Shown here: in pieces, positions 1 through 20,237 of the stretch
Position numbering within the stretch: position 1 is the first letter of the stretch
How the letters are laid out: every line of letters begins with the position of its first letter
From: Vicinamibacteria bacterium
Lineage (GTDB): Bacteria > Acidobacteriota > Vicinamibacteria > Marinacidobacterales > Marinacidobacteraceae
Reading direction: 5' to 3'
Length of the DNA: 64,000 nt
Assembly (NCBI GenBank): GCA_963555995.3
Contig: OY821641.1
Span: 832,001 to 896,000, forward strand
Made by a program: the position numbers and the translations under genes
Notes under the pieces: generated by a model
The model's database searches: none
What the model saw: only the letters and a program-made list of their open reading frames with translations
Told to the model about the DNA's origin: nothing

Positions 1-432
1 GAGGCGCGGAAACGCCCGCTTCCCGACGGGGCCGGGGCGGCGGTGGAGCGGTTGGGCGCGATCCTCCGGGTGCTGGAGGATCTGGAACTCGCCGGCCGGT
101 TCCGTTTCGACCTGGCCGAACTCCGGGGCTTCGACTACTACACGGGGCTCATCTTCGAGGTGCACGCTCCCGGGGCCGGGCAGGAGATCGGGGGAGGGGG
201 CCGCTACGACGACCTGCTCGCCAACTTCGGCGACCCGCGCCCCGCCGTCGGTTTCTCGCTCTCGGTGGACCGGATCGCCGGAATCCTGCCGGAATCTTCG
301 GATGCCGGGCAGGGCGCGACCGAATCCGTCGCCCGCGGACCCGATACCCGGAGCGGGCTGGCGGCGCGCTTCCGGGCCGCGCGGGCCGCCCGCGCCGGTG
401 GCTCCGCGGTCCGCTTCGAACCTCCGTCCTGA
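1..432 (+). CDS. hisZ: ATP phosphoribosyltransferase regulatory subunit HisZ, C-terminal part (5' end outside window)
   Basis: HisRS-like motifs [13 protein letters not shown] and [13 protein letters not shown]; lies directly upstream of a short-form hisG. Confidence 0.88.
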
Positions 433-500
433 CCAAGCGCGGACCGCGCCCCCGGGCAGCCCGCGCGGCGGGCGCATCCCCCTAGAATCCCCGCTCACCC

Positions 501-1124
501 ATGGACCCCCCGCTCGTCGCCGCCCTCCCCACGGGGCGGCTGCTGCGGGCGGTGGCCGGGCTGCTCGGGCGCGCCGGAGTGCCTCTGCCCGAGGGGAGCG
601 CCGACCGCCGCCTGCGCCTCCGGGACGACGGGATGGAGGTGCTGTTCGCGAAGGACCGCGACGTCCCCATCTACGTCGAGCACGGGGTGGCCGACTTCGG
701 GGTGGTCGGCCGCGACATCCTGGAAGAAGCGCCCGCGCATATCTACGAGCCGCTCGACCTCGGGGTGGGCCGCTGCCGCATGGTGGTCGCCCGTCCGGCG
801 GCCCGGCCGCTTCCCGAGCCGCCGCTGCGGGTGGCGACGAAGTATCCGTCCGTTGCGGCCCGCCACTTCGGCGGGCGCGGCGCGCCCATCGAGCTGATCC
901 GGCTCTCCGGCGCCATCGAACTGGCCCCCGCGATGGATCTCGCCGACGCCGTGGTGGACCTGGTCGAGACCGGCGCGACGCTCCGGGACAACGGTCTGGT
1001 AGAAGAGGAGACGCTCTTCGAGAGCACCGCGCGGGTGGTGGTGAATCGCGCCTCCTTCCGGCTTCGCGGGTCGGCGCTCCAGGGGTGGCTCCGGCGTCTC
1101 GAAACCGCCACGGAGGGAGGATGA
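501..1124 (+). CDS. hisG: ATP phosphoribosyltransferase, short form
   Basis: 207 aa; motifs ALPTGRL, DVPIYVEHGVADFGVVG, RVATKYP, DLVETGATLRDNGL. Confidence 0.95.
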   Translation: MDPPLVAALPTGRLLRAVAGLLGRAGVPLPEGSADRRLRLRDDGMEVLFAKDRDVPIYVEHGVADFGVVGRDILEEAPAHIYEPLDLGVGRCRMVVARPAARPLPEPPLRVATKYPSVAARHFGGRGAPIELIRLSGAIELAPAMDLADAVVDLVETGATLRDNGLVEEETLFESTARVVVNRASFRLRGSALQGWLRRLETATEGG

Positions 1125-2500
1125 GCGGCGGGGACCCCCGGTCTCCCTTCGCGGTCCCGCTCTTCGAGGGCGCCGCCGCCTGGCGGGCCGATCCGCGGCG
1201 AGCCCGGTCGGGAGGAAACGGCGCCGGCGAGGGGGTTCGCGCCGCGACGGCGGCCATCGTCGAGCGCGTGCGGTGCGAAGGCGACGAGGCGCTCGTCGCC
1301 CTGGCGCAGCGGTTCGAAGCGCCCGATTTCGATGCCTCCCGGCTCCGGGTGTCCCGGGAGGAGCTCGTGAAGCGCGCGGGCGACGCCGGACCGGAGGAGC
1401 AGGCGCTGCTCCGGCGAACCAGGGACCGCATCGCCGCCTACCACGAACGCCAGCGGGAGATCTCGTTCCGGATGGACCTCGGAGACGGCTCGCGTCTCGA
1501 GTGGAGACCGCGCCCGATCGCGGCCGCCGGGGTGTATGTCCCGGGCGGGGCCGCCGTCTATCCGTCCACCGTGCTGATGACCACGGTCCCGGCCGCGGTC
1601 GCCGGGGTCCCGCGGATCGCGCTCGCGACACCTCCCGGCGCGCTCGAACGCAGCCCGGTGCTCGCGGCCGCGGTCCTCGCGGCCGGAGTCCACGAGGTGT
1701 ACCGCATCGGCGGCGCGCAGGCCATTGCCGCCTTCGCCTTCGGGACGGCTTCGGTCCGCCGGGTGGACAAGGTGGTGGGTCCGGGGAACGCCTACGTCGC
1801 CGAGGCCAAGCGCCAGCTCGGCCAGTTCATCGGAACGGATGCGTTCGCCGGCCCCTCCGAGGTCGTGGTGCTCGCCGACGAGACCGCCCGGGCGGACTGG
1901 GTGGCCGCCGATCTCCTTGCCCAGGCCGAGCACGGTTCCGGCGAGGAGCGGGCCATCCTGGTCACCACCTCGCGCGAACTCGGTCGTGCGGTGGTGTCCG
2001 AGCTCATCCGCCAGGCCGAAGGGCAGCCGAACGCGGAAACGATGGCCCGCGCGCTCGCCCGTCACGGAGCGGTGGTGGTCGCCCGGGATCTGGAGGAGGC
2101 GGTCGAGGTCGCGGAGGAGATCGCGCCCGAGCACCTCGAAGTGATGACCCGGGACCCCGAGGCGCTTGCCGGCCGCTTCCCGAGCGCGGGGGCGGTCCTG
2201 CTGGGCGACCACTCGCCGGTTGCGGCCGGGGACTACGGGGCCGGCCCCAATCACGTCCTGCCGACCGGCGGCGCCGCCCGCTTCGCCTCGCCGCTCTCGG
2301 TCGGCGATTTCCTCAAGCGGCAGAGCGTCCTCCGCTACGGGGAACGGACTCTCGCGTCGCTCCGGAAGGATTTCGAGCGCTTCGCCCGCATCGAGGGATT
2401 CGAGGCCCACGCCCGGTCCGTCGCCATCCGCTTCGAGGCGGAAGACGCCGGGCGAACCGCCCACTCCGACACCAGCGAACTCTCCGCCGAAGATCGTTGA
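1121..2500 (+). CDS. hisD: histidinol dehydrogenase
   Basis: GVYVPGG, GGAQAIAA, KVVGPGN, AGPSEV, AQAEH, PEHLE, GPNHVLPT; ATG 1121 overlaps the hisG stop (ATGA) and follows GGAGGGAGG. Confidence 0.95.
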   Translation: MSGGDPRSPFAVPLFEGAAAWRADPRRARSGGNGAGEGVRAATAAIVERVRCEGDEALVALAQRFEAPDFDASRLRVSREELVKRAGDAGPEEQALLRRTRDRIAAYHERQREISFRMDLGDGSRLEWRPRPIAAAGVYVPGGAAVYPSTVLMTTVPAAVAGVPRIALATPPGALERSPVLAAAVLAAGVHEVYRIGGAQAIAAFAFGTASVRRVDKVVGPGNAYVAEAKRQLGQFIGTDAFAGPSEVVVLADETARADWVAADLLAQAEHGSGEERAILVTTSRELGRAVVSELIRQAEGQPNAETMARALARHGAVVVARDLEEAVEVAEEIAPEHLEVMTRDPEALAGRFPSAGAVLLGDHSPVAAGDYGAGPNHVLPTGGAARFASPLSVGDFLKRQSVLRYGERTLASLRKDFERFARIEGFEAHARSVAIRFEAEDAGRTAHSDTSELSAEDR

Positions 2501-2525
2501 CCGCCCGTTTGGTTAGATTGCCCGC

Positions 2526-3653
2526 ATGAAACCCGTTCCGCTCGACGCGATCCGACCCGAGGTGCTCGAACTCGCCCCCGACATCGGCTCCCGTCCGGAT
2601 GTCCCGATCTACCTCGACTGGAACGAGAGCCGCTGGCCGCTCCCCGAAGGCGTCCTCGGCGGGATGGCGGACGCGATCGCCGGCACCGACGCCCGGCCGT
2701 ACCCGGATCGGGGCTACCCGGCCGTCCGCGAGGCCATCGCCCGGCTCGCCGGCTGGACCCCCGACGGCGTGGCCTTCGGAAACGGCGGGGACGACATGCT
2801 CGAGTTGACCGGGCTCGCCACCACCGGCGCCGGGCGGCGCGCGCTCTATCCGTCTCCCGGTTTCTCCATGTACCCCTGGGCGGTCCGGCTCGCGGGCGGC
2901 GAACCGTCTCCGGTGTCCCTCTGCGACGACCTCTCCTACGACGTCCCGGAGTTCCTGCGGCGGATCGAGGCCGAGCGGCCATCGCTCGTCTTCATCACGA
3001 ATCCGCACAACCCGACGGGACAACTGCTGCCTCTGGGCGCGCTGCGCGAGCTGGCCGCGGCGGCGCCGGGCTTCCTGCTGGTGGACGAGGCATACCACGA
3101 GTTCAGCGGCCAGACCGCCCGGCCGCTTCTCGACGAGTTCGGAAACGTCATCCTGCTCCGGACGTTCTCGAAGGCGATGGCGATGGCGGGGGCCCGTCTC
3201 GGATACCTGCTCGGCGCTCCGGAGGCGATCTCGGGTTTCCGCCGGGCGCAGCCGCCGTTCCCCGTCGGGGTCTATACCTGCCGGGCGGCGGCCGCGGTCA
3301 TGCGGCAGCGGGAGGCGCTGCTGGAAATGACCGCCAGGATCACCGCGGAGCGCGAGTCGCTGGCGGTCCGGCTCGCCGCGGTGCCGGACGTTTCCGTCTG
3401 GCCGTCGCACACGAACTTCCTTCTCTTCCGGACGCCGATGGAGAGCACGGTGCTGGCCCGCCGGCTCCTCGACCGGGGCGTCGCGCTGCGCGACTTCTCC
3501 CGCCACCCGCTGCTCCGGGAAACGCTCCGCGTGACCGTCGGAACCCCCGAAGAGAACGTGGTCTTCCTGGACGCGCTCGCCGATTCCCTCGCGTCCGCCG
3601 TCGAGGACTCGGAACTCCAGGTCGCGGGAATGCCGGAGTCTCCGGTCGCATGA
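2526..3653 (+). CDS. hisC: histidinol-phosphate aminotransferase
   Basis: NPHNPTG, VDEAY, RTFSKA..G.RLGY PLP-lysine motif; his cluster context. Confidence 0.93.
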   Translation: MKPVPLDAIRPEVLELAPDIGSRPDVPIYLDWNESRWPLPEGVLGGMADAIAGTDARPYPDRGYPAVREAIARLAGWTPDGVAFGNGGDDMLELTGLATTGAGRRALYPSPGFSMYPWAVRLAGGEPSPVSLCDDLSYDVPEFLRRIEAERPSLVFITNPHNPTGQLLPLGALRELAAAAPGFLLVDEAYHEFSGQTARPLLDEFGNVILLRTFSKAMAMAGARLGYLLGAPEAISGFRRAQPPFPVGVYTCRAAAAVMRQREALLEMTARITAERESLAVRLAAVPDVSVWPSHTNFLLFRTPMESTVLARRLLDRGVALRDFSRHPLLRETLRVTVGTPEENVVFLDALADSLASAVEDSELQVAGMPESPVA

Positions 3654-4273
3654 GTGTCTCCGCCCCGGCGGGGGTTCCGGCGCGGCGCCGGCAGGCCTCC
3701 CGTCTCCGGGAAACGCGCGAGACACGGGTCCGGGTCGCCCTCGACCTCGATCCGCCGGCGCCATCCGCGGAGATCTCCACCGGCATCGGCTTCTTCGATC
3801 ACATGCTCGAGGCCTTTGCGCGCCATGCCGGGATCTCCCTGACCGTGGAGGCCGAGGGGGACCTGCACGTGGACGCCCACCACACGATGGAGGACGTGGG
3901 TTTGACCCTGGGCGAGTGCCTTGCGGACGCGCTCGGCGATCTCAAGGGAGTACGCCGCTTCGGCGCCGCCCACGTTCCCCTGGACGAGGCGCTCTCGCGG
4001 GTGGTGGTGGATCTCTGCGGGCGGCCGTTCCTGGGCTGGCGGGTGGCGTTTCTCGCCGAACGGGTCGGAGAGACGCCCACCGAACTCTTCGAGGACTTCT
4101 TCCGCGCCCTGACCGACCGGGGGCGGCTCACGGTACACGTGGACGGGCTCACCGGCCGGAACGCCCATCACGTGGCCGAAACGGTCTTCAAGGCCTTCGC
4201 TCGGGCCTTCGCCGAGGCGAAGGACGTGGTGGGCGGCGCCGTTCCCTCGACCAAGGGCACCCTGTCCGCGTAG
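3650..4273 (+). CDS. hisB: imidazoleglycerol-phosphate dehydratase
   Basis: TGIGFFDHML, DAHHTMED, NAHHVAE..FKA, PSTKG. Confidence 0.96.
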   Translation: MSVSAPAGVPARRRQASRLRETRETRVRVALDLDPPAPSAEISTGIGFFDHMLEAFARHAGISLTVEAEGDLHVDAHHTMEDVGLTLGECLADALGDLKGVRRFGAAHVPLDEALSRVVVDLCGRPFLGWRVAFLAERVGETPTELFEDFFRALTDRGRLTVHVDGLTGRNAHHVAETVFKAFARAFAEAKDVVGGAVPSTKGTLSA

Positions 4274-4279
4274 CGGCCC

Positions 4280-4906
4280 GTGAGCGCCGAAGCGGTCGTG
4301 GTCGTTGATCACGGCGCCGGGAACCTCGCCAGCGTGGTCCGCGCCCTCCGGAGGCAGGGGGCCGAAGCGGAACTCACCTCCGATCCCGGGCGCATCGCCG
4401 CCGCGAAGCGGCTGGTCCTGCCGGGGGACGGACACTTCGGCGAAGCGATGCGGGCGCTCCGGGAGCGCGGGCTGGAAGCGCCGCTCGGGAGCGCGCTCGA
4501 TTCGGGAGCCTGGCTGCTCGGAATCTGTGTCGGACTGCAGATGCTCTTCAAGGGAAGCGATGAGGCGCCCGGAGTTCACGGCCTCGGCCTGCTGCCGGGA
4601 CGTGTCCGCCGTTTCGGCGGCCGGCTCCGCGTGCCCCACATCGGCTGGAACCAACTCGAAGGGTTCGGCGAGGCCTCCCTGTTTCGCGGCATCCCCGAGG
4701 GCGGCTACGCCTATTTCCTCCATTCGTTCTACGTGGACCCCGCGGAGGGGCGCCACTGGCTGGCCACCACCGAATACGGCGTCCGGTTCGCGTCGGCGGC
4801 GGGAAACGGCCGCGTCTTCGGGATCCAGTTCCACCCCGAAAAGAGCGGGCGCCTCGGCGCCCGGGTGCTCTCCAACTTTCTGGCGCTCGGCGGGCAGGAG
4901 AACTGA
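4280..4906 (+). CDS. hisH: imidazole glycerol phosphate synthase, glutamine amidotransferase subunit
   Basis: GICVGLQ, PHIGWN, QFHPEKS. Confidence 0.96.
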
Positions 4907-4909
4907 ACC

Positions 4910-5701
4910 TTGTCCTCCGGGGCGCTCGAACCCATTCCCGCGGTGGATCTCTCCGGAGGGCGGGTCGTGCGCCTGCTCCGGGGGGTGCGGGAGCGCGAGA
5001 CGGTGTACGGCGACGATCCACTCCGGACGGCGAGCGGTTTCGCCGCCGCCGGGGCGCGCTGGCTGCACGTGGTGGACCTCGACGCCGCCTTCGGCGACGG
5101 TGGCAACCGGGAGACGATCCTGCGGCTCCTCGGCGAGTCGCGGCTCCGGGTGCAGGTCGCCGGCGGCGTCCGGACGGTCGAGTCCTACGCGGCGCTCCGG
5201 GAGGCGGGCGCCGCCCGGGTCGTGTTCGGAACCGTCGCCGTCGAAGACCCCCGGGTGGTGGAAGCGGCCATCCGGATGGACGCCGCCGGAGTCGCGGTGG
5301 CGCTCGACGTGCGCGGCGGCCGGCTGCAGACCCGGGGTTGGGTCGAACCGGACCCCGGCGGCGCCCCCCGGACCGGGACGTCGCCGGAAGCCGCGGCGCG
5401 TCACTGGGGCGAGCGTGGCGCCTCGGCCATCGTGTACACGAGCGTCGAGCGCGACGGCACGATGGAAGGGCCGGACGCGGAGGCCGCCCTGCGGGTAGCC
5501 GCCGCCTCCGGACTGCCGACGGTGGTGGCGGGCGGCGTCGGGGCGCTCTCGCATCTGCGGGCGGTGCGCGCCGCCGCCCGGGAGCATGAGATCACGCCCG
5601 GCAGCGGTTCCGCGCCGGGCCGCCTCGCGGGCGTCATTCTGGGACGGGCGCTCTACGAGGGGCGTTTCACGCTCCCCGAGGCCCAACGGGCGCTCGCCTA
5701 G
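4910..5701 (+). CDS. hisA: ProFAR isomerase
   Basis: [39 protein letters not shown]. Confidence 0.94.
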
Positions 5702-5727
5702 CCGGGTACGTGCGGGTCGGCTTGGCG

Positions 5728-6372
5728 TCAGGAAACCGGGGCGGGGAAACGGCGGGTGATCTCCGCCGCCACCTCCCGCCCGTCGATCCCGAGGTCCTCC
5801 AGCAGGACGAGCAGGTGGTAGAGGAGATCCACCGACTCGTTCACGACCTCGCCGGCTGACCCGGAGACGGCGGCGAGCGAGACCTCGACGGCTTCCTCAC
5901 CCACCTTCTGGGCGATGCGCGGGGTGCCCGCCTGGAGCAGGGCCGCCGTGTAGGAGCCCTCGGGACGGCTCGCCGCGCGTTCCCGGACGATCCCGACGAG
6001 CGCGCTCAACGCGGGTCCGAGCTCCGGGGCGGGCACGGGTTCCGGAGCTTCTCCTTCCTCCGTCACCGGCTCGAAGAAACACGACGTCCGGCCCGTGTGG
6101 CAGGCCGGACCGGTGGGGTCGGCCTGGACCAGGAGGACGTCGCCGTCACAATCGGCGGTCAGCGAACGGAGGTGGAGCTCGTTGCCCGAGGTTTCGCCTT
6201 TCTTCCAGAGGGTCCGGCGGCTCCGCGACCAGAAATGAACCCGCCTGGTCTCGATCGTCCGGGACAGGGCCTCTTCGTTCATCCAGGCGAGCATGAGGAC
6301 CCGGCCGCTCACCGCGTCCTGGACCACGGCGGGGACCAGGCCGGCCTCGTTCCACTGGATCTTGGGCTTCAT
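5728..6372 (-). CDS. hisIE: bifunctional phosphoribosyl-AMP cyclohydrolase / phosphoribosyl-ATP pyrophosphatase
   Basis: [40 protein letters not shown]; ATG 6372 overlaps the hisF stop. Confidence 0.95.
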
Positions 6373-7172
6373 GGAACGACGGCGCGTTCGGGAACGCCGA
6401 AGAAATCGGCCTCCGGCGGACGGACCGGGATCCCCCGCCCGGCGAGGAAACGCTTGACCTCGGCGACCGGGTGGATGCCGCGATGGAAGATGGACGCGGC
6501 GAGCGCCGCGCTCGCGCCGGTTGCTTCGAAGACCTCCGCCAGGTGCGAGGGGCGGCCGGCGCCCCCGGAGGCGATCAGCGGCACGGAAACGGCCTCGGCC
6601 GCTTCCCGGAGCTGCTCGATGTCGTAGCCGTCCGCGGTTCCGTCCCGGTCCATGCTGGTGAGCAGGATCTCCCCGGCGCCGAGGTCCTCGCCGCGCCGGA
6701 GCCACTCGATGGCGTCGCGTCCGGTGGGTGTCCGTCCTCCCGCCACCACCACCTCGAACCCGCCGCCCGGAACGCGGCGGGCATCCACCGCGAGCACCAG
6801 GCATTGCGACCCGAACCGGCGGCTGCACTTGGCGAGGAGTTCCGGCCGCTCGACCGCGGCGCTGTTCATGGAGACCTTGTCGGCGCCGGCCCGCAGCAGG
6901 TTGTCCATGTCGGCGACCGAGCGCACCCCGCCTCCGACCGTGAAGGGGATCGTGAGGGCTTCCGCCACCCGCCGCACGGTGCCGAGTGCCGTCCCGCGCG
7001 CTTCCCAGGTGGCGGTGATGTCGAGGAGACACAGCTCGTCCGCTTCGGCGGCGTCATACGCCACGGCGCATTCCACCGGATCTCCCTCGTCGGTGAGGTT
7101 CCGGAAGCGCACGCCCTTGACCACCCGGCCGTTCTTCACGTCGAGACAGGGAATGATCCGGCGGGCAAGCAC
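6369..7172 (-). CDS. hisF: imidazole glycerol phosphate synthase, cyclase subunit
   Basis: [41 protein letters not shown]. Confidence 0.97.
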
Positions 7173-7224
7173 CGCGCGATTCTAGGCCCGGTGAGACCAA
7201 CGGGGCCCGCCTAGACTTCCCGGA
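7172..7224. promoter_or_regulatory. back-to-back putative -10 elements for leaderless hisF and the Fic-like gene
   Basis: TAGAAT (minus, 7184-7179) is 6 nt before GTG 7172; TAGACT (7212-7217) is 6 nt before ATG 7224; no SD sequence before either start. Confidence 0.55.
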
Positions 7225-7973
7225 TGAGCGACGCGCTGCCGCTTCATCCGGGCGCGGGCGCCCCGCGTCCGCAGGGGCCCGGACAGGAAATCCGCGCGCG
7301 GCGCGACCGGATTCGGGAACAGGCAGGGAGCGAACGGTGGCGCTCCGGCCGGCAGACGCTGGTGGTGGAGGCGGCCCGGGCGACGCTGCAACTGACGGGG
7401 ACGGCCCTCACCGAGGAGGAGATTCAGGCGGCGCGCCGGGGGGCGCCCACCCCCACGTTCGGTCCTGCGCTCGGGGCCCTTGGTCTGATCGGAAACGCCG
7501 CCGCCGAACGCGACCCCGGCGTGGAGCTGATCGGTGAGGTTCACGCGGTCTCCGGCGGCCTCACCGGAGCGAGCCCCTTCCGCACCATCCAGATCGAGCC
7601 GCAGTTTCAGGGGGCTGGCCTTTCGCCTCCCCAGACCGTGGCGTTCCGGCTCGGCAACCTCCTGGAGTGGGTTTCCGGCGCCAGCGGGCGCGATCTCGAA
7701 ACCGCGCCGCGCGCAGCGCTCTTCTTTGCCCGTTTCCTCGAGATCTCACCCTTCGAGCGCGCGAACTTCCGCGTGGCGCACCTGATGCTCACCTTCTTTG
7801 CCCTCGCCGACGACCAACCGCCGGTCTGGTTCGAGGTGGAGGATGCGCCCGGCATCCGGGAAGACGTCTCGCGCGCCTTCCGCTTCGATACCGCGCCGCT
7901 GACGGAGCGCATCGAACGGTCCCTCCACCGCTCCCTGGACCTGATCGCCGGTCCGGGCGCGGTTTCCCGGTAA
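7224..7973 (+). CDS. Fic/Fido-domain-like protein with a degenerate active site
   Basis: EISPFERANFRVAHL sits where HPFxDGNGRxxR is expected; N-terminal LTGTALTEEEI and FRT..I segments resemble Fic proteins. Confidence 0.65.
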   Translation: MSDALPLHPGAGAPRPQGPGQEIRARRDRIREQAGSERWRSGRQTLVVEAARATLQLTGTALTEEEIQAARRGAPTPTFGPALGALGLIGNAAAERDPGVELIGEVHAVSGGLTGASPFRTIQIEPQFQGAGLSPPQTVAFRLGNLLEWVSGASGRDLETAPRAALFFARFLEISPFERANFRVAHLMLTFFALADDQPPVWFEVEDAPGIREDVSRAFRFDTAPLTERIERSLHRSLDLIAGPGAVSR

Positions 7974-8143: not shown

Positions 8144-8419
8144 ATGATCCCGCCGTTCGGCTCTCTCGGCTCCCTTGCTTCCTGGGCCATGCTCCAGCAG
8201 CGGCAGGTGGTCGAGTACGTCACGCTCCCGAGCGAGGAACCGGAGCGCGGGATCCTGACGCTCATCCTGGAATCCTTCGCCCTCGCCGGAACGCTTCTCC
8301 TGGGTACCGTGCTGATCGGGCTCGGCGTGGGGCTCTTTCGCGTCTGGCTGCTGCGCCGGTATCCGGAGAACAGCTTCAACGGAAGCGGACGGGACATCCC
8401 CCGGCTCGATCTCAGTTGA
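8144..8419 (+). CDS. small single-pass membrane protein (hypothetical)
   Basis: 3' part of ORF 7667-8419 has a clear hydrophobic helix (ILTLILESFALAGTLLLGTVLIGLGVGLF); TACAAT upstream; start could be ATG 8144 or 8189. Confidence 0.65.
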   Translation: MIPPFGSLGSLASWAMLQQRQVVEYVTLPSEEPERGILTLILESFALAGTLLLGTVLIGLGVGLFRVWLLRRYPENSFNGSGRDIPRLDLS

Positions 8420-8850
8420 GTCCGGCGGAAGCCCCCCCGTCGGCCGTCAACCGCCGCTTTCCGGACGGCGTTCCCGTGGCCATCTATGACGGGGGTTGAG
8501 GGTTCTGCACCCGCGCCGCGGTCGCGGCGGCCCGCTTCGCGGAAGACCGGCCGGTCCGTTTCGCCGCGCATCAGGAGCTGACCGACGACCAGTTGCGGCA
8601 ACTGGGCGTCTCGCGCGCCGCCTGCGAGAAGCGGGTTCGTTTCCGGGACGCCCGCGGCAGGTTTCACGGCGGCGCCTTCGCGGTCAACCGGTTCATCCTG
8701 CACGCCGCCCCGCCCGGCTGGACCGGCCTTCCGGCCCGCTTCCTGGTGATGGCCGCCTATGTTCTTCCCCCTCTCCTGCTGGCCGAACTCGCCGCGTACG
8801 AGATCGTCGCCCGCAACCGAAACTGCCGTCTCTTCAATCCGGGCCGCTAA
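8416..8850 (+). CDS. DCC1/DUF393-family thiol-disulfide oxidoreductase with in-frame UGA at 8497-8499; probable selenoprotein (UxxC)
   Basis: reads ..VAIYDGG*GFCTR..HGGAFAVN..YEIVARNR; ORFs 8110-8499 and 8593-8850 share one frame; the UGA takes the place of the first Cys of DxxCxxC; TTG start overlaps the upstream stop (TTGA). Confidence 0.8.
8514..8529 (+). promoter_or_regulatory. putative bacterial SECIS hairpin
   Basis: CGCCGC-GGUC-GCGGCG; 6-bp stem, loop at +21..+24 after the UGA. Confidence 0.6.
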
Positions 8851-8890: not shown

Positions 8891-9763
8891 GTGTCCAGAA
8901 CCCTTTTCCTGACCCTCATCGCTGTCTTGTTCCTGCTCGGTTGCGGGGCCCCACCTGTCGAGGAGCCCATGCAGCCCGCTGCGGTCGCCGTGGACGACCA
9001 GCCGGCCGGCGAGTACGTCCGGTTCGCGGATGCCGCGGGCGCGGCGGCGTGGGGGCGGATCGAGGGCGACGAGATCGCCGTGCTCCACGCCGCGCCCTGG
9101 GCGGGCGGGGCGCCCACCGGAGACCGGGTGGCGCGCGACGGAGCGAGGCTCCTGGCGCCGGCCGACCCCGGCAAGGTCATCGCCATCGGCCTCAACTACG
9201 CCTCACACCTGGGCGGGCGCGAACCGGCGCCCTATCCCGGGGTTTTCGCCAAACTGCCGGGCAGCATCGTCGGCCCGGGCGACGCCATCGAGATGACCGA
9301 AGACGCCGGCAACGTCCACTACGAGGGCGAACTGGTGCTGGTGATCGGGAAAGAAGCCCGGGACGTCCCCGTGGAGCAGGCGCAGGACTACATCTTCGGC
9401 GTGACGGCCGGGAATGACGTGAGCGAGCGCGACTGGCAGGGCGCCGATCTCCAGTGGTTCCGCGCCAAGGCGTCGGACACCTACGGCCCTATCGGCCCGG
9501 TGATCTCGCGCGGCGTCAACTACGACGATCTCGAACTCACCACCCGGCTGAACGGGGAGGTCGTCCAGCAGCAGCGGACCAGCGACCTGATCTTCGACAC
9601 GAGCACCATCGTGAGCTACCTGAGCCGCTACGTGGCCCTGATGCCCGGGGACGTGATCTTCACCGGGACCCCCGGCACCACCCAGGCGATGAACGAAGGG
9701 GACATGGTTTCCGTCGAGGTCGAGACGGCCGGCGTCCTCGAGAACCCGGTCGCCCGGCGTTGA
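8891..9763 (+). CDS. fumarylacetoacetate hydrolase (FAH) family protein with lipoprotein signal
   Basis: KVIAIGLNY, HYEGEL, GNDVSERD, AKASDT, GDVIFTGTP; GTG start after GAGGAGG; N-terminal hydrophobic stretch ends in LLGC. Confidence 0.9.
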   Translation: MSRTLFLTLIAVLFLLGCGAPPVEEPMQPAAVAVDDQPAGEYVRFADAAGAAAWGRIEGDEIAVLHAAPWAGGAPTGDRVARDGARLLAPADPGKVIAIGLNYASHLGGREPAPYPGVFAKLPGSIVGPGDAIEMTEDAGNVHYEGELVLVIGKEARDVPVEQAQDYIFGVTAGNDVSERDWQGADLQWFRAKASDTYGPIGPVISRGVNYDDLELTTRLNGEVVQQQRTSDLIFDTSTIVSYLSRYVALMPGDVIFTGTPGTTQAMNEGDMVSVEVETAGVLENPVARR

Positions 9764-17338: not shown

Positions 17339-20077
17339 CTAGGAGCAGCCGGAGGTGGCGCCGCAGTTGAGGCACTTGAAGCAGGTGCCGCTTCGCACCA
17401 TGAGCGCGCCGCACGTCGAACAGGGAGGCGCGTCCGCGAAGACGGCCGCCGACTCGAGGACGGTCCCGCGGCGGCGGGTGCGCTTCTTCTCCGGAGGAGC
17501 CGCGGCGGGCTGGGACGGCTCGCCGTCCTCGGCGTCCAACTCGTCGGCGTCCGTCAGGAAGCGGTGTCCCAGCCAGCGGAAGATGTAGTCGGTGATCGAG
17601 TCCGCGTGGGGAATGTCCGGGTTGCCGGTGTAGCCCGAGGGCTCGAAGCGCGTGTGCGAGAACTTGTCCACCAGGACCTTGAGCGGAACCCCGTACTGGA
17701 GGTTGTAGGAAACCGCCCGCGCGAAGGCGTCCATCAGTCCGGACACGAAAGAGCCTTCCTTGGCCATCCGCAGGAAGATCTCGCAGGGAGAGCCGTCCTC
17801 GCGCAGTCCGACGGTGAGGTATCCCTTGTGTCCGCCGATGTCGAACTTGTGGATGATGGCGTCGCGCTCCGGCGGCAGGTGCTCCTTCTCGGCGGAGAGG
17901 GCGGCGTCCGCCGTTTCGGTGGCCGACTCGCCCCGGTTCAGCGGCTGCGACCGCTTGCTGCCGTCCCGGTAGATGGCCACCGCCTTGAGGCCGAGCTTCC
18001 AGGATGCGAGGTAGGTCTCCTCGATGTCCTCGACGGTGCTCTCCTCCGGCATGTTGACCGTCTTCGAGATGGCGCCCGAAAGGAAGGGCTGGACTGCGTG
18101 CATCATCTTGACGTGGCCCATGTAGTGGATGGAACGCTTCCCGCCGAAGGGCTCGAGCGCGCAGTCGAAGACGGGGAGATGTTCCTCTTCGAGGTCGGGG
18201 GCCCCCTCGACGTGGCCGTGCTCGTCCACGTAGTCCCAGATCCGCTGGAGGGCTTCGCCCTCGTAGCCAAGCCGCTCCAGCGCCGAGCGCACCGTCTGGT
18301 TGACGATGCGGATGATCCCGCCGCCGCTGAGCTTCTTGTGCTTGATGAGCGACAGATCGGGCTCCACGCCGGTCGTGTCGCAATCCATCATGAGGCCGAT
18401 GGTGCCCGTCGGCGCCAGCACCGAGGCCTGGCCGTTCCGGTAGCCGTGTTCCTCACCGAGCACGATGGCCTCGTCCCAGACCTGCCGCGCCCGGGACAGG
18501 ACCTCATGCGGGACACCCTCGGCATCGATTGCGGTTGCCGCATCCCGATGCATGCGCATCACCTCGAGGAACGGCTGCTCGTTCTCCGGGTAACCCCGGA
18601 ACGGTCCGGTGACCCCGGCGATCCGCGCCGACTGGTGGTATGCCCGGCCCGTCATCAGCGAAGTCAGGGCGGCCGCGATCGAGCGGCCGACGTCGCTGTC
18701 GTAAGGGACGCCGCGATGCATCAGGAGCGCCCCGAGGTTCGCGTAGCCGAGGCCGAGGGGCCGGTACTCGTGCGAGTTCGCTTCGATGCGCGGCGTCGGA
18801 TAGCTGGCGTTCCCGACGATGATCTCCATGCCGGTCAGCACCACATCCACCGCGTGCTCGAAGCCGTCGGTGTCGAAGACGCCCCCCTCGTCCACGAACT
18901 TCATGAGGTTCAGGGACGCGAGGTTACAGGCGCTGTCGTCGAGGTACATGTACTCGGAACACGGATTCGAGGCGTTGATCCGCCCGCTGTTCTTCGAGGT
19001 GTGCCAGCGGTTCACGGTGTCGTCGAACTGCATCCCCGGATCGCCGCATTGGTGCGCCGATTCGGCGATCTGCCGGAACAGGTCCCGGGCCCGCATGGTG
19101 TCCATGGGTTCGCCGCTGGTGATCGCGCGGGTGGACCAGTCCTCGTCGTTTTCGACCGCCCGCATGAAGGCGTCGCTGACGCGAACGCTGTGGTTCGCGT
19201 TCTGGTACTGGATGGATGCGTACGCCTCACCGTTCAGGGAGCCGTCATAGCCCGCTTCGATCAGGGCGTGGGCTTTTTGTTCCTCGCGGGACTTGCAGTC
19301 GACGAAGTCGAGGACGTCCGGATGATCCACGTTGAGAATCACCATCTTGGCGGCTCGCCGGGTCTTGCCTCCACTCCGGATGACGCCGGCGAAGGAGTCG
19401 TACCCCTTCATGAAGGAAACCGGTCCGGAGGCCCTGCCGCCGCTGGACAACTGCTCCCGGGAACTCCGGATCGTGGAGAGGTTGGTGCCGGTGCCGGATC
19501 CCCACTTGAAGAGCATGCCCTCGGTCTTGGCGAGGGTCAGGATGGAATCCATGGTGTCTTCGACCGAGTTGATGAAGCACGCCGAGCACTGCGGATGCTC
19601 CTCGACGCCGCAGTTGAACCAGACCGGCGAGTTGAACGCGGCGAACTGGTTCAGCAACAGGAAGGTGAGCTCGTCGCGGAACGTGTCCGCGGCCTCCCGG
19701 TCTGCGAAGTAGCTGTCCTTCACCCCCCAGGCCGCAATCTGGTCGGCCACCCGTCCGACCAGTTGCCGGACGCTCGATTCGCGCTCTCCCCTTTCGAGCG
19801 ACCCGTGGAAGTACTTCGACGCCACGATCGTGGTCGCCATCATGGACCACGACTTCGGGAACTCCACGCCGTGCTGCGCAAAGATCGTCTCCCCGTGTTC
19901 GTCGGTGATGACGGCGTCGCGCTTCTCCCACTCCACCTGGTCGTAGGGTGAGACACCGCGTTCGGTGAACCGGCGCCGGAATTCGAGTCCGCCGGCGCGA
20001 CCGTTCTTTCGCTCCCTGCGGGTCTTCTCGTTTTCGGAACGGGGCCCGACGGTGGTGGGCTCTACGGCAACATGCAT
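17339..20077 (-). CDS. nrdJ: class II (adenosylcobalamin-dependent) ribonucleotide reductase
   Basis: FNSPVWFN, PQCSACFI, GGKTRRAAKM, ASNPCSEY, APTGTI, C-terminal CxxC..CxxC ending GCS; start ATG 20077. Confidence 0.96.
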   Translation of the reverse strand: MHVAVEPTTVGPRSENEKTRRERKNGRAGGLEFRRRFTERGVSPYDQVEWEKRDAVITDEHGETIFAQHGVEFPKSWSMMATTIVASKYFHGSLERGERESSVRQLVGRVADQIAAWGVKDSYFADREAADTFRDELTFLLLNQFAAFNSPVWFNCGVEEHPQCSACFINSVEDTMDSILTLAKTEGMLFKWGSGTGTNLSTIRSSREQLSSGGRASGPVSFMKGYDSFAGVIRSGGKTRRAAKMVILNVDHPDVLDFVDCKSREEQKAHALIEAGYDGSLNGEAYASIQYQNANHSVRVSDAFMRAVENDEDWSTRAITSGEPMDTMRARDLFRQIAESAHQCGDPGMQFDDTVNRWHTSKNSGRINASNPCSEYMYLDDSACNLASLNLMKFVDEGGVFDTDGFEHAVDVVLTGMEIIVGNASYPTPRIEANSHEYRPLGLGYANLGALLMHRGVPYDSDVGRSIAAALTSLMTGRAYHQSARIAGVTGPFRGYPENEQPFLEVMRMHRDAATAIDAEGVPHEVLSRARQVWDEAIVLGEEHGYRNGQASVLAPTGTIGLMMDCDTTGVEPDLSLIKHKKLSGGGIIRIVNQTVRSALERLGYEGEALQRIWDYVDEHGHVEGAPDLEEEHLPVFDCALEPFGGKRSIHYMGHVKMMHAVQPFLSGAISKTVNMPEESTVEDIEETYLASWKLGLKAVAIYRDGSKRSQPLNRGESATETADAALSAEKEHLPPERDAIIHKFDIGGHKGYLTVGLREDGSPCEIFLRMAKEGSFVSGLMDAFARAVSYNLQYGVPLKVLVDKFSHTRFEPSGYTGNPDIPHADSITDYIFRWLGHRFLTDADELDAEDGEPSQPAAAPPEKKRTRRRGTVLESAAVFADAPPCSTCGALMVRSGTCFKCLNCGATSGCS

Positions 20078-20187
20078 TGGGAAAATCCTTGAAGGTGGGA
20101 CAGGGGCGAGCGTCGAGGAGCGACGACCGCCCCTCTCCGGGCCACGCCGTACACCTTGACACCCGCGTCTAGTGTCAAGCCAATCAC

Positions 20188-20237
20188 ACCACAAGATGTA
20201 GCGGTCGTCAACCACCGGACCCCCAACCCCTAGTGGT
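20188..20237. promoter_or_regulatory. tandem NrdR boxes upstream of nrdJ
   Basis: ACCACAAGATGTAGCGGT (20188-20205) and CCCCCAACCCCTAGTGGT (20220-20237), 32 bp apart; resemble the acaCwAtATaTwGtg consensus. Confidence 0.75.

Follow-up and report, generated by a model that had tools for sequence, protein, structure and literature searches.

To our knowledge, an activity of a DCC protein is known only for Arabidopsis DCC1; the family is DCC1-like (PF04134), and we take DUF393 and YuxK to be other names for it. Arabidopsis DCC1 is an oxidoreductase with the motif DxxCxxC that reduces CA2 (PMC7598583). Bacterial selenoproteins that combine a thioredoxin fold with a UxxC motif belong to other families, namely thioredoxin (PF00085), glutaredoxin (PF00462), DsbA-like (PF01323) and Prx-like (PF00578) proteins (Table 1 of PMC13188914), and Cys-to-Sec conversion has been proposed as the origin of many bacterial selenoproteins (PMC13188914). 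PF04134 and DCC are absent from that Table 1, which gives 119 prokaryotic selenoprotein families (2026). DCC, DUF393 and YuxK were not found in the passages and four supplements of deep-Sep that were compared (PMC12013277). No DCC was found in the compared passages of BSepDB, whose Table S1 lists a 'Candidatus Marinacidobacterium' genome (PMC13326102). Full-text literature searches found no paper tying the DCC family to Sec.

In this study, a DCC gene was analyzed in a 64,000-nucleotide window (the whole stretch of DNA under analysis). We believe, with a probability of about 0.92 as judged from the sequences compared here, that this gene encodes a real, unannotated selenoprotein, a Sec variant of the DCC family made by the standard bacterial mechanism. 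Sec recoding of the gene had been claimed by an initial annotation, and the claim is supported by the Sec machinery of the genome, the genus-wide TGA, purifying selection and a frozen hairpin.

The DCC gene and its in-frame TGA

The main features of the gene are as follows.

8416..8850, plus strand: DCC1-like (PF04134) oxidoreductase gene, TTG start, TAA stop, 144 aa on read-through
8488..8508, plus strand: redox motif D25-G-G-U28-G-F-C31 (DxxUxxC), between strand 21-24 and helix 29-41 of the model
8497..8499, plus strand: in-frame TGA, predicted Sec28 (codon 28), TGA in 16 of 16 genomes of the genus and TGC in 12 of 12 genomes of sister genera
8593..8850, plus strand: 85-aa fragment under which gene callers record the gene, protein-collection entry P0002

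The frame from TTG 8416 reads ...IYDGG-TGA-GFCTR... and then continues for 116 open codons to ...YEIVARNRNCRLFNPGR-TAA at 8850. The read-through protein matched Pfam DCC1-like PF04134 over residues 23-136 with an E-value of 1.7e-10 and 42.6 bits (cut-off 27.8). The initial annotation had stated that the ORF track splits the gene, that one frame nevertheless passes through YDGG-TGA-GFC to the typical DCC C-terminus (Y..VARNR), and that the TGA occupies the first Cys of DxxCxxC, giving UxxC. The ORF listing does end one frame at 8499, the continuous frame was confirmed at 8416-8850 by its PF04134 match, and sequence and alignment agree on the place of the TGA. D25, G26, position 28, G29 and C31 were invariant in 18 aligned rows; if the TGA is Sec, the N-terminal DxxCxxC of DCC1-like proteins is present as D25xxU28xxC31. 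The pattern [FYW]DxxCxxC was found in 134 of 149 new representatives, and the UGA thus aligns with a conserved Cys of homologues.

Compared with the Cys-type DCC1-like oxidoreductases, the protein has the same Pfam match, the same motif position and the same C-terminal Y..VARNR, but its first Cys is a TGA, and two further traits set its subfamily apart, an additional invariant Cys70 and a C-terminal helix of greater hydrophobicity. With the UxxC thioredoxin-fold selenoproteins it shares the UxxC motif, an in-CDS hairpin within the bSECIS constraints and Cys homologues, and it may share their thioredoxin-like topology, whereas it belongs to a different Pfam family, outside the 119 catalogued ones (PMC13188914), and has no NCBIfam selenoprotein model. 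In NCBIfam 20.0, the sole match was PrdB, with an E-value of 0.011 and 15 bits against a cut-off of 300.

In the protein collection, the gene is present only as the 85-aa C-terminal piece, which has no Pfam domain, and the DCC genes of relatives are likewise stored as fragments of 83-90 aa. The metagenomic runs used for comparison include a marine metagenome and a sponge metatranscriptome. Contigs from three runs (X1, X3 and X21) span the TGA unchanged; the X1 contig has 0 differences over 8152-8543, and X1 may be the source sample. The A at 8499 is carried by contigs of other runs, which are assembled contigs and not reads.

A second DCC domain, with the normal motif DGDCGIC, was observed at 171629-172027 (minus strand) of the genome contig, at the end of a 406-codon open frame. 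It is apparently fused to a membrane region and occurs in most genomes of the genus.

Sec machinery and other Sec genes

The selA, selB and selD genes were found in the genome with 489.7, 297.1 and 247.4 bits, respectively, all above cut-off, together with a tRNA-Sec (69.7 bits, anticodon TCA), and the proposed check for Sec machinery was answered in this way. Among the relatives, selA was above cut-off in 58 of 61 genomes, including all 28 of the family. The selD of this genome is a Cys form (CGGCAAK) at about 2910614-2913000 (minus strand) of the genome contig, fused behind an N-terminal domain, presumably an NADH-dehydrogenase-type flavoprotein.

Five other genes of known selenoprotein types carry an in-frame TGA, i.e., Prx TxxU, AhpC-type UxxC, AhpD-type CxxU, SelW-like CxxU and MerB-like genes.

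1183397 (minus), 1619913 (plus), 3698142 (plus), 1248819 (plus) and 1026209 (minus) of the genome contig: TGAs of the five other Sec-type genes

Across the family, the TGA was kept in 28 of 28 AhpC-type, 25 of 25 AhpD-type and 17 of 17 MerB-like matches, the last being from 15 genomes of the genus and 2 of genus g4. The MerB-like gene (minus strand) has Thr-Sec where SaoL has Cys-Sec, and its score with MerB (about 50 bits) is higher than that with SaoL (19 bits). Its TGA precedes xxMxFF, as does that of a representative in the deep-Sep supplement (PMC12013277). A formate dehydrogenase alpha gene with TGA was not found, the PF00384 search of the genome giving one match without a stop; therefore, redox proteins appear to carry the Sec trait in this genome. 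TGA is also the main stop codon, ending 1058 of 1722 long ORFs.

Identical 60-nt stretches were observed at seven places of the genome contig, 3291071 and 3765481 on the plus strand and 2804033, 2684839, 2498451, 769699 and 693903 on the minus strand. Another identical 60-nt stretch recurs at four places 7-13 kb apart (3365412, 3352350, 3345366 and 3338394, minus strand), and 418788 (plus strand) was a different, single match in this comparison. These recurrent stretches are probably multi-copy mobile elements or tandem gene repeats.

The hairpin downstream of the TGA

Two features of the gene lie just after the TGA.

8512..8534, plus strand: invariant 23-nt run in 15 sequences of the genus, the next-longest invariant run in the gene being 6 nt
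8514..8529, plus strand: predicted SECIS upper stem-loop CGCCGC-GGTC-GCGGCG, 6-bp stem, -10.8 kcal/mol, identical in 16 of 16 loci of the genus

The GGUC loop is at 8520-8523. Its distance had been given as 21 nt after the UGA, which is correct in that the loop starts at the 21st base, with 20 nt in between. The SECIS of E. coli fdhF has the same GGUC apical loop, as had been stated, and GGTC was found there 18 nt after the UGA; the DCC element differs from it in its spacing of 20 nt and in its unbroken 6-bp GC stem. The hairpin lies within the published bSECIS constraints (loop of 3-9 nt with G first, spacing of 16-37 nt, energy of -7.5 kcal/mol or lower), which were taken from PMC13188914 and checked by our own script instead of bSECISearch.

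The stability of the hairpin against shuffled sequences was unremarkable (z from 0.09 to 1.24), and it was the minimum-energy fold in 1 of 4 folded segments. Out of 4000 random TGA triplets of the genome, 578 (14%) passed the published SECIS model, which is loose, and 23 (0.6%) passed a strict version. A G-loop hairpin of -7.5 kcal/mol or lower was present 17-27 nt downstream in 6 of the 12 Cys orthologues, with registers and loops different from those of the genus, and the exact 16-mer of the hairpin occurs at 2 other places in the genome. The hairpin by itself is weak evidence; its weight comes from its invariance across genomes and its match with the other Sec genes of the genome. As an argument for Sec, it therefore held on these two counts and failed on folding energy.

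Within the genus, all 7 codons from +5 to +11 are invariant, compared with variation in 44 of 46 codons elsewhere in the gene that encode conserved residues with four-fold or higher degeneracy. In the Cys genera, the same 7 codons change freely. A C8514T substitution was seen in one strain of run X21, and the outer pair is retained there as U-G. No compensatory double change in the hairpin was found among the 16 genomes because the hairpin hardly varies. The hairpin codons fix Ala34, which is Leu in 8 of the 12 Cys orthologues, and Val36, which occurs in none of them (Arg in 8, Ala in 2 and Thr in 2).

The spacing and the GGUC loop match the other SECIS-like hairpins of the genome, since the AhpC-type, AhpD-type and MerB-like genes have GGC or GGUC-type loops at about 17-21 nt. 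The AhpC-type genes have a GGC loop at 21 nt in 28 of 28 cases, with A-U, G-U and G-C exchanges, the AhpD-type genes have GGTCT or GTC loops at 17-19 nt in 24 of 25, and the MerB-like genes have a GGTC loop at 19 nt; in 10 of these 17 genes, another hairpin competes with a slightly better score. In these three positive controls, the hairpin changes preserve pairing. The local hairpin consensus is not strict because the loop of the Prx hairpin, at comparable spacing, lacks a G and the SelW-like stem contains a bulge.

Conservation and selection

A match to the DCC gene was found in 29 of the 61 genomes searched. TGA is at the motif position in 16 of 16 genomes of the genus, which are kin and not independent samples; all 16 have selA above cut-off. 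In one of them (G015), the gene is cut between contigs, and the other 15 genes are complete, with no further stops or frameshifts. Six sister genera have TGC at the same locus in each of their 12 genomes examined, and TGC is also found in a genome of another family (G035). When 401 genomes of the class were searched, 68 matched, and a TGA inside the match occurred only in this genus. The Cys orthologues of the nearest genera are 58-67% identical and syntenic.

Over 113 codons after the UGA, the median dN/dS of 105 pairs of the 15 genes was 0.12 (range 0-0.38), and dS downstream of the UGA reached 1.59. Close relatives with TGC or TGT throughout, or a decaying downstream sequence, had been named as outcomes that would speak against Sec; instead, the relatives within the genus keep TGA, and purifying selection acts downstream.

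Phylogeny and origin of Sec

A pattern scan of metagenomes gave 120 loci, of which 52 were DCC-like at an E-value below 1e-4 and 40 had at least 100 open codons after the TGA. One of these 40 belongs to this genus. The 39 others have the TGA at the same motif position and the UxxC, with several different downstream hairpins; the best of these differ in sequence from that of the genus and are mostly 24-27 nt or more from the UGA. The family had been described as normally annotated as Cys-only. This gene is very likely a Sec form of such a family, but such forms are not unique to this genome, as TGA-bearing DCC genes are also present in metagenomes.

Trees were built from 192 rows (FastTree) and 46 rows (IQ-TREE) with the Sec/Cys residue masked. 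The Sec genus formed one branch (100/99), nested in three nodes (100/99, 99/93 and 100/99) that include Cys genes of the family as well, whereas the other TGA-bearing DCC genes formed a separate branch (100/99 for 10 rows, IQ-TREE). A single Sec clade was rejected (p-AU 5e-11), as was a single clade of the Cys genes of the family (p-AU 0.004); the distant outgroups were drawn from protein collections and are biased towards Cys because such collections cannot hold read-through Sec forms. The sister genera use Sec elsewhere, in AhpC-type and AhpD-type genes. Because the Sec genus is nested in Cys relatives and a single origin was rejected, these trees make it likely that Cys changed to Sec once, at the root of the genus, and independently of the metagenomic TGA-bearing DCC lineage.

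Neighbourhood, fold and predicted mechanism

Along the window, the his operon is followed by the Fic-like gene, the small membrane-type gene, the DCC gene and the FAA hydrolase gene. Positions 1-7214 of the window, directly upstream, presumably hold the histidine biosynthesis operon, with ORFs resembling hisZ, G, D, C, B, H, A, F and IE.

7224..7973, plus strand: Fic/DOC-like gene, PF02661 with E 1.2e-5, neighbour of the DCC gene at 27 of 28 family loci
8144..8419, plus strand: small membrane-type protein without Pfam match, stop overlapping the DCC start, own start uncertain (ATG 8144 or 8189)
8740..8796, plus strand: hydrophobic helix of the DCC protein, residues 109-127, Kyte-Doolittle 19-mer 1.94, possible membrane contact
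8891..9763, plus strand: FAA-hydrolase family gene, PF01557 and PF10370, downstream of the DCC gene in 27 of 28 family loci, the missing locus being a cut contig

In each of the 28 family loci examined, the small membrane-type gene adjoins the DCC gene. The Sec form and the Cys form share the same three neighbours (in 28, 27 and 27 of 28 family loci) and are therefore orthologues. The TTGA overlap between the upstream stop and the DCC start was kept in 16 of 16 loci of the genus, 63-81 nt before the UGA, and its distance to the UGA was always a multiple of 3 despite indels. A membrane-associated redox role is suggested because of the hydrophobic C-terminal helix and the overlap with the small membrane-type gene, whose product is a candidate partner of the DCC protein. 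Elsewhere in the window, a ribonucleotide-reductase-like ORF was observed at 17339-20215 (minus strand).

The predicted model, made from an 18-row alignment, had a pLDDT of 85.5 and a pTM of 0.64. Its strand-motif-helix order fits a thioredoxin-like topology. In Foldseek, the best listed matches were almost all thioredoxin, glutaredoxin or PDI domains, with a best E-value of 0.02 and TM of 0.25-0.39, and none reached 0.001; the sequence search found no solved DCC structure. From the sequence, the TGA is very likely decoded as Sec, and the product is a predicted U-G-F-C selenol/thiol oxidoreductase. By established bacterial Sec biology, SelB carrying Sec-tRNA would bind the GGUC hairpin and deliver Sec at the UGA. 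The fold suggests that Sec28, at the start of helix 29-41, would attack a substrate disulfide or oxidant, and that Cys31 would resolve the mixed bond. The building of the hairpin inside the coding sequence may have fixed Ala34 and Val36, as the alignments indicate.

Discussion

Other explanations of the in-frame TGA were weighed against Sec insertion at this codon. A single base change would suffice for a pseudogene with a TGC-to-TGA nonsense mutation, or for an assembly error. However, the TGA is common to 16 species-level genomes, among which dS reaches 1.59 and the downstream dN/dS is 0.12, the 15 complete genes contain no additional stop or frameshift, and the TGA is also found in contigs of other runs, so that we regard this explanation as practically negligible. 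The nonsense mutation of a TGY codon that the initial annotation offered as its alternative was rejected on the same genus-wide TGA and downstream selection. Leaky UGA read-through occurs in bacteria, and this general fact is all that speaks for a TGA translated without Sec, through a reassigned code or the leaky insertion of Trp or Cys; there is no specific support for it. Such a reading is hardly credible in a genome where TGA ends most of the long ORFs, the UCA-anticodon tRNA is of the Sec type, and family searches confirm in-frame TGAs at the redox Cys of known selenoprotein types. The TGA might also be a true stop, leaving a 27-aa peptide and a re-initiated 85-aa C-terminal protein, with the frozen 23 nt as a regulatory site. 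The 85-aa piece is what gene callers record, and the hairpin, being an inverted repeat, could be an operator. Nevertheless, from the TGA to 8593 the encoded amino acids, Cys31 among them, are conserved despite synonymous variation, the TGA coincides exactly with the motif Cys, the Cys orthologues run through without a break, and no other sense frame is consistently open, the one open antisense frame being broken in 2 of 15 genomes; we believe that a true stop is very unlikely.

The remaining alternative accepts Sec as real but makes it ancestral in the family, so that sister genera reverted to Cys several times and their hairpins are relics. The SECIS-like hairpins in 6 of 12 Cys orthologues agree with this, as do the existence of other TGA-bearing DCC lineages and the use of TGC, one step from TGA, in all 12 Cys orthologues; but most of these genes (10 of 12) also use TGC for the second motif Cys, and the sister hairpins differ in register and loop. 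On the supported tree, an ancestral Sec would imply no fewer than three or four returns to Cys, and these in genera whose other Sec genes are retained. The nearest outside homologue that was read through stops (that of G035) has TGC, and Sec-to-Cys change is reported to be rare in bacteria outside FdhA and SelD (PMC13188914). We therefore consider an ancestral Sec unlikely, though less so than the explanations above.

It is probable that DCC is an uncatalogued selenoprotein family into which Sec was recruited more than once, and that this genus keeps one such birth almost intact. The birth would consist of one TGC-to-TGA change and a GGUC SECIS set in an Ala-rich helix, which cost two amino-acid changes, and six sister genera that use Sec still have Cys orthologues at this locus. 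Chance hairpins, present in half of the sisters, may be the starting material for such a SECIS.

The recoding mechanism itself is standard. The finding would add a widespread redox family to the prokaryotic selenoproteome, and it would correct a systematic annotation error by which genes are stored as 85-aa fragments without the active site. As the likely gain maps to one genus branch with syntenic Cys orthologues, the birth of a SECIS inside a coding sequence becomes testable side by side. With the matched Cys/Sec pairs, one could test directly what Sec contributes to a DCC enzyme and by which minimal path a new bacterial selenoprotein arises.
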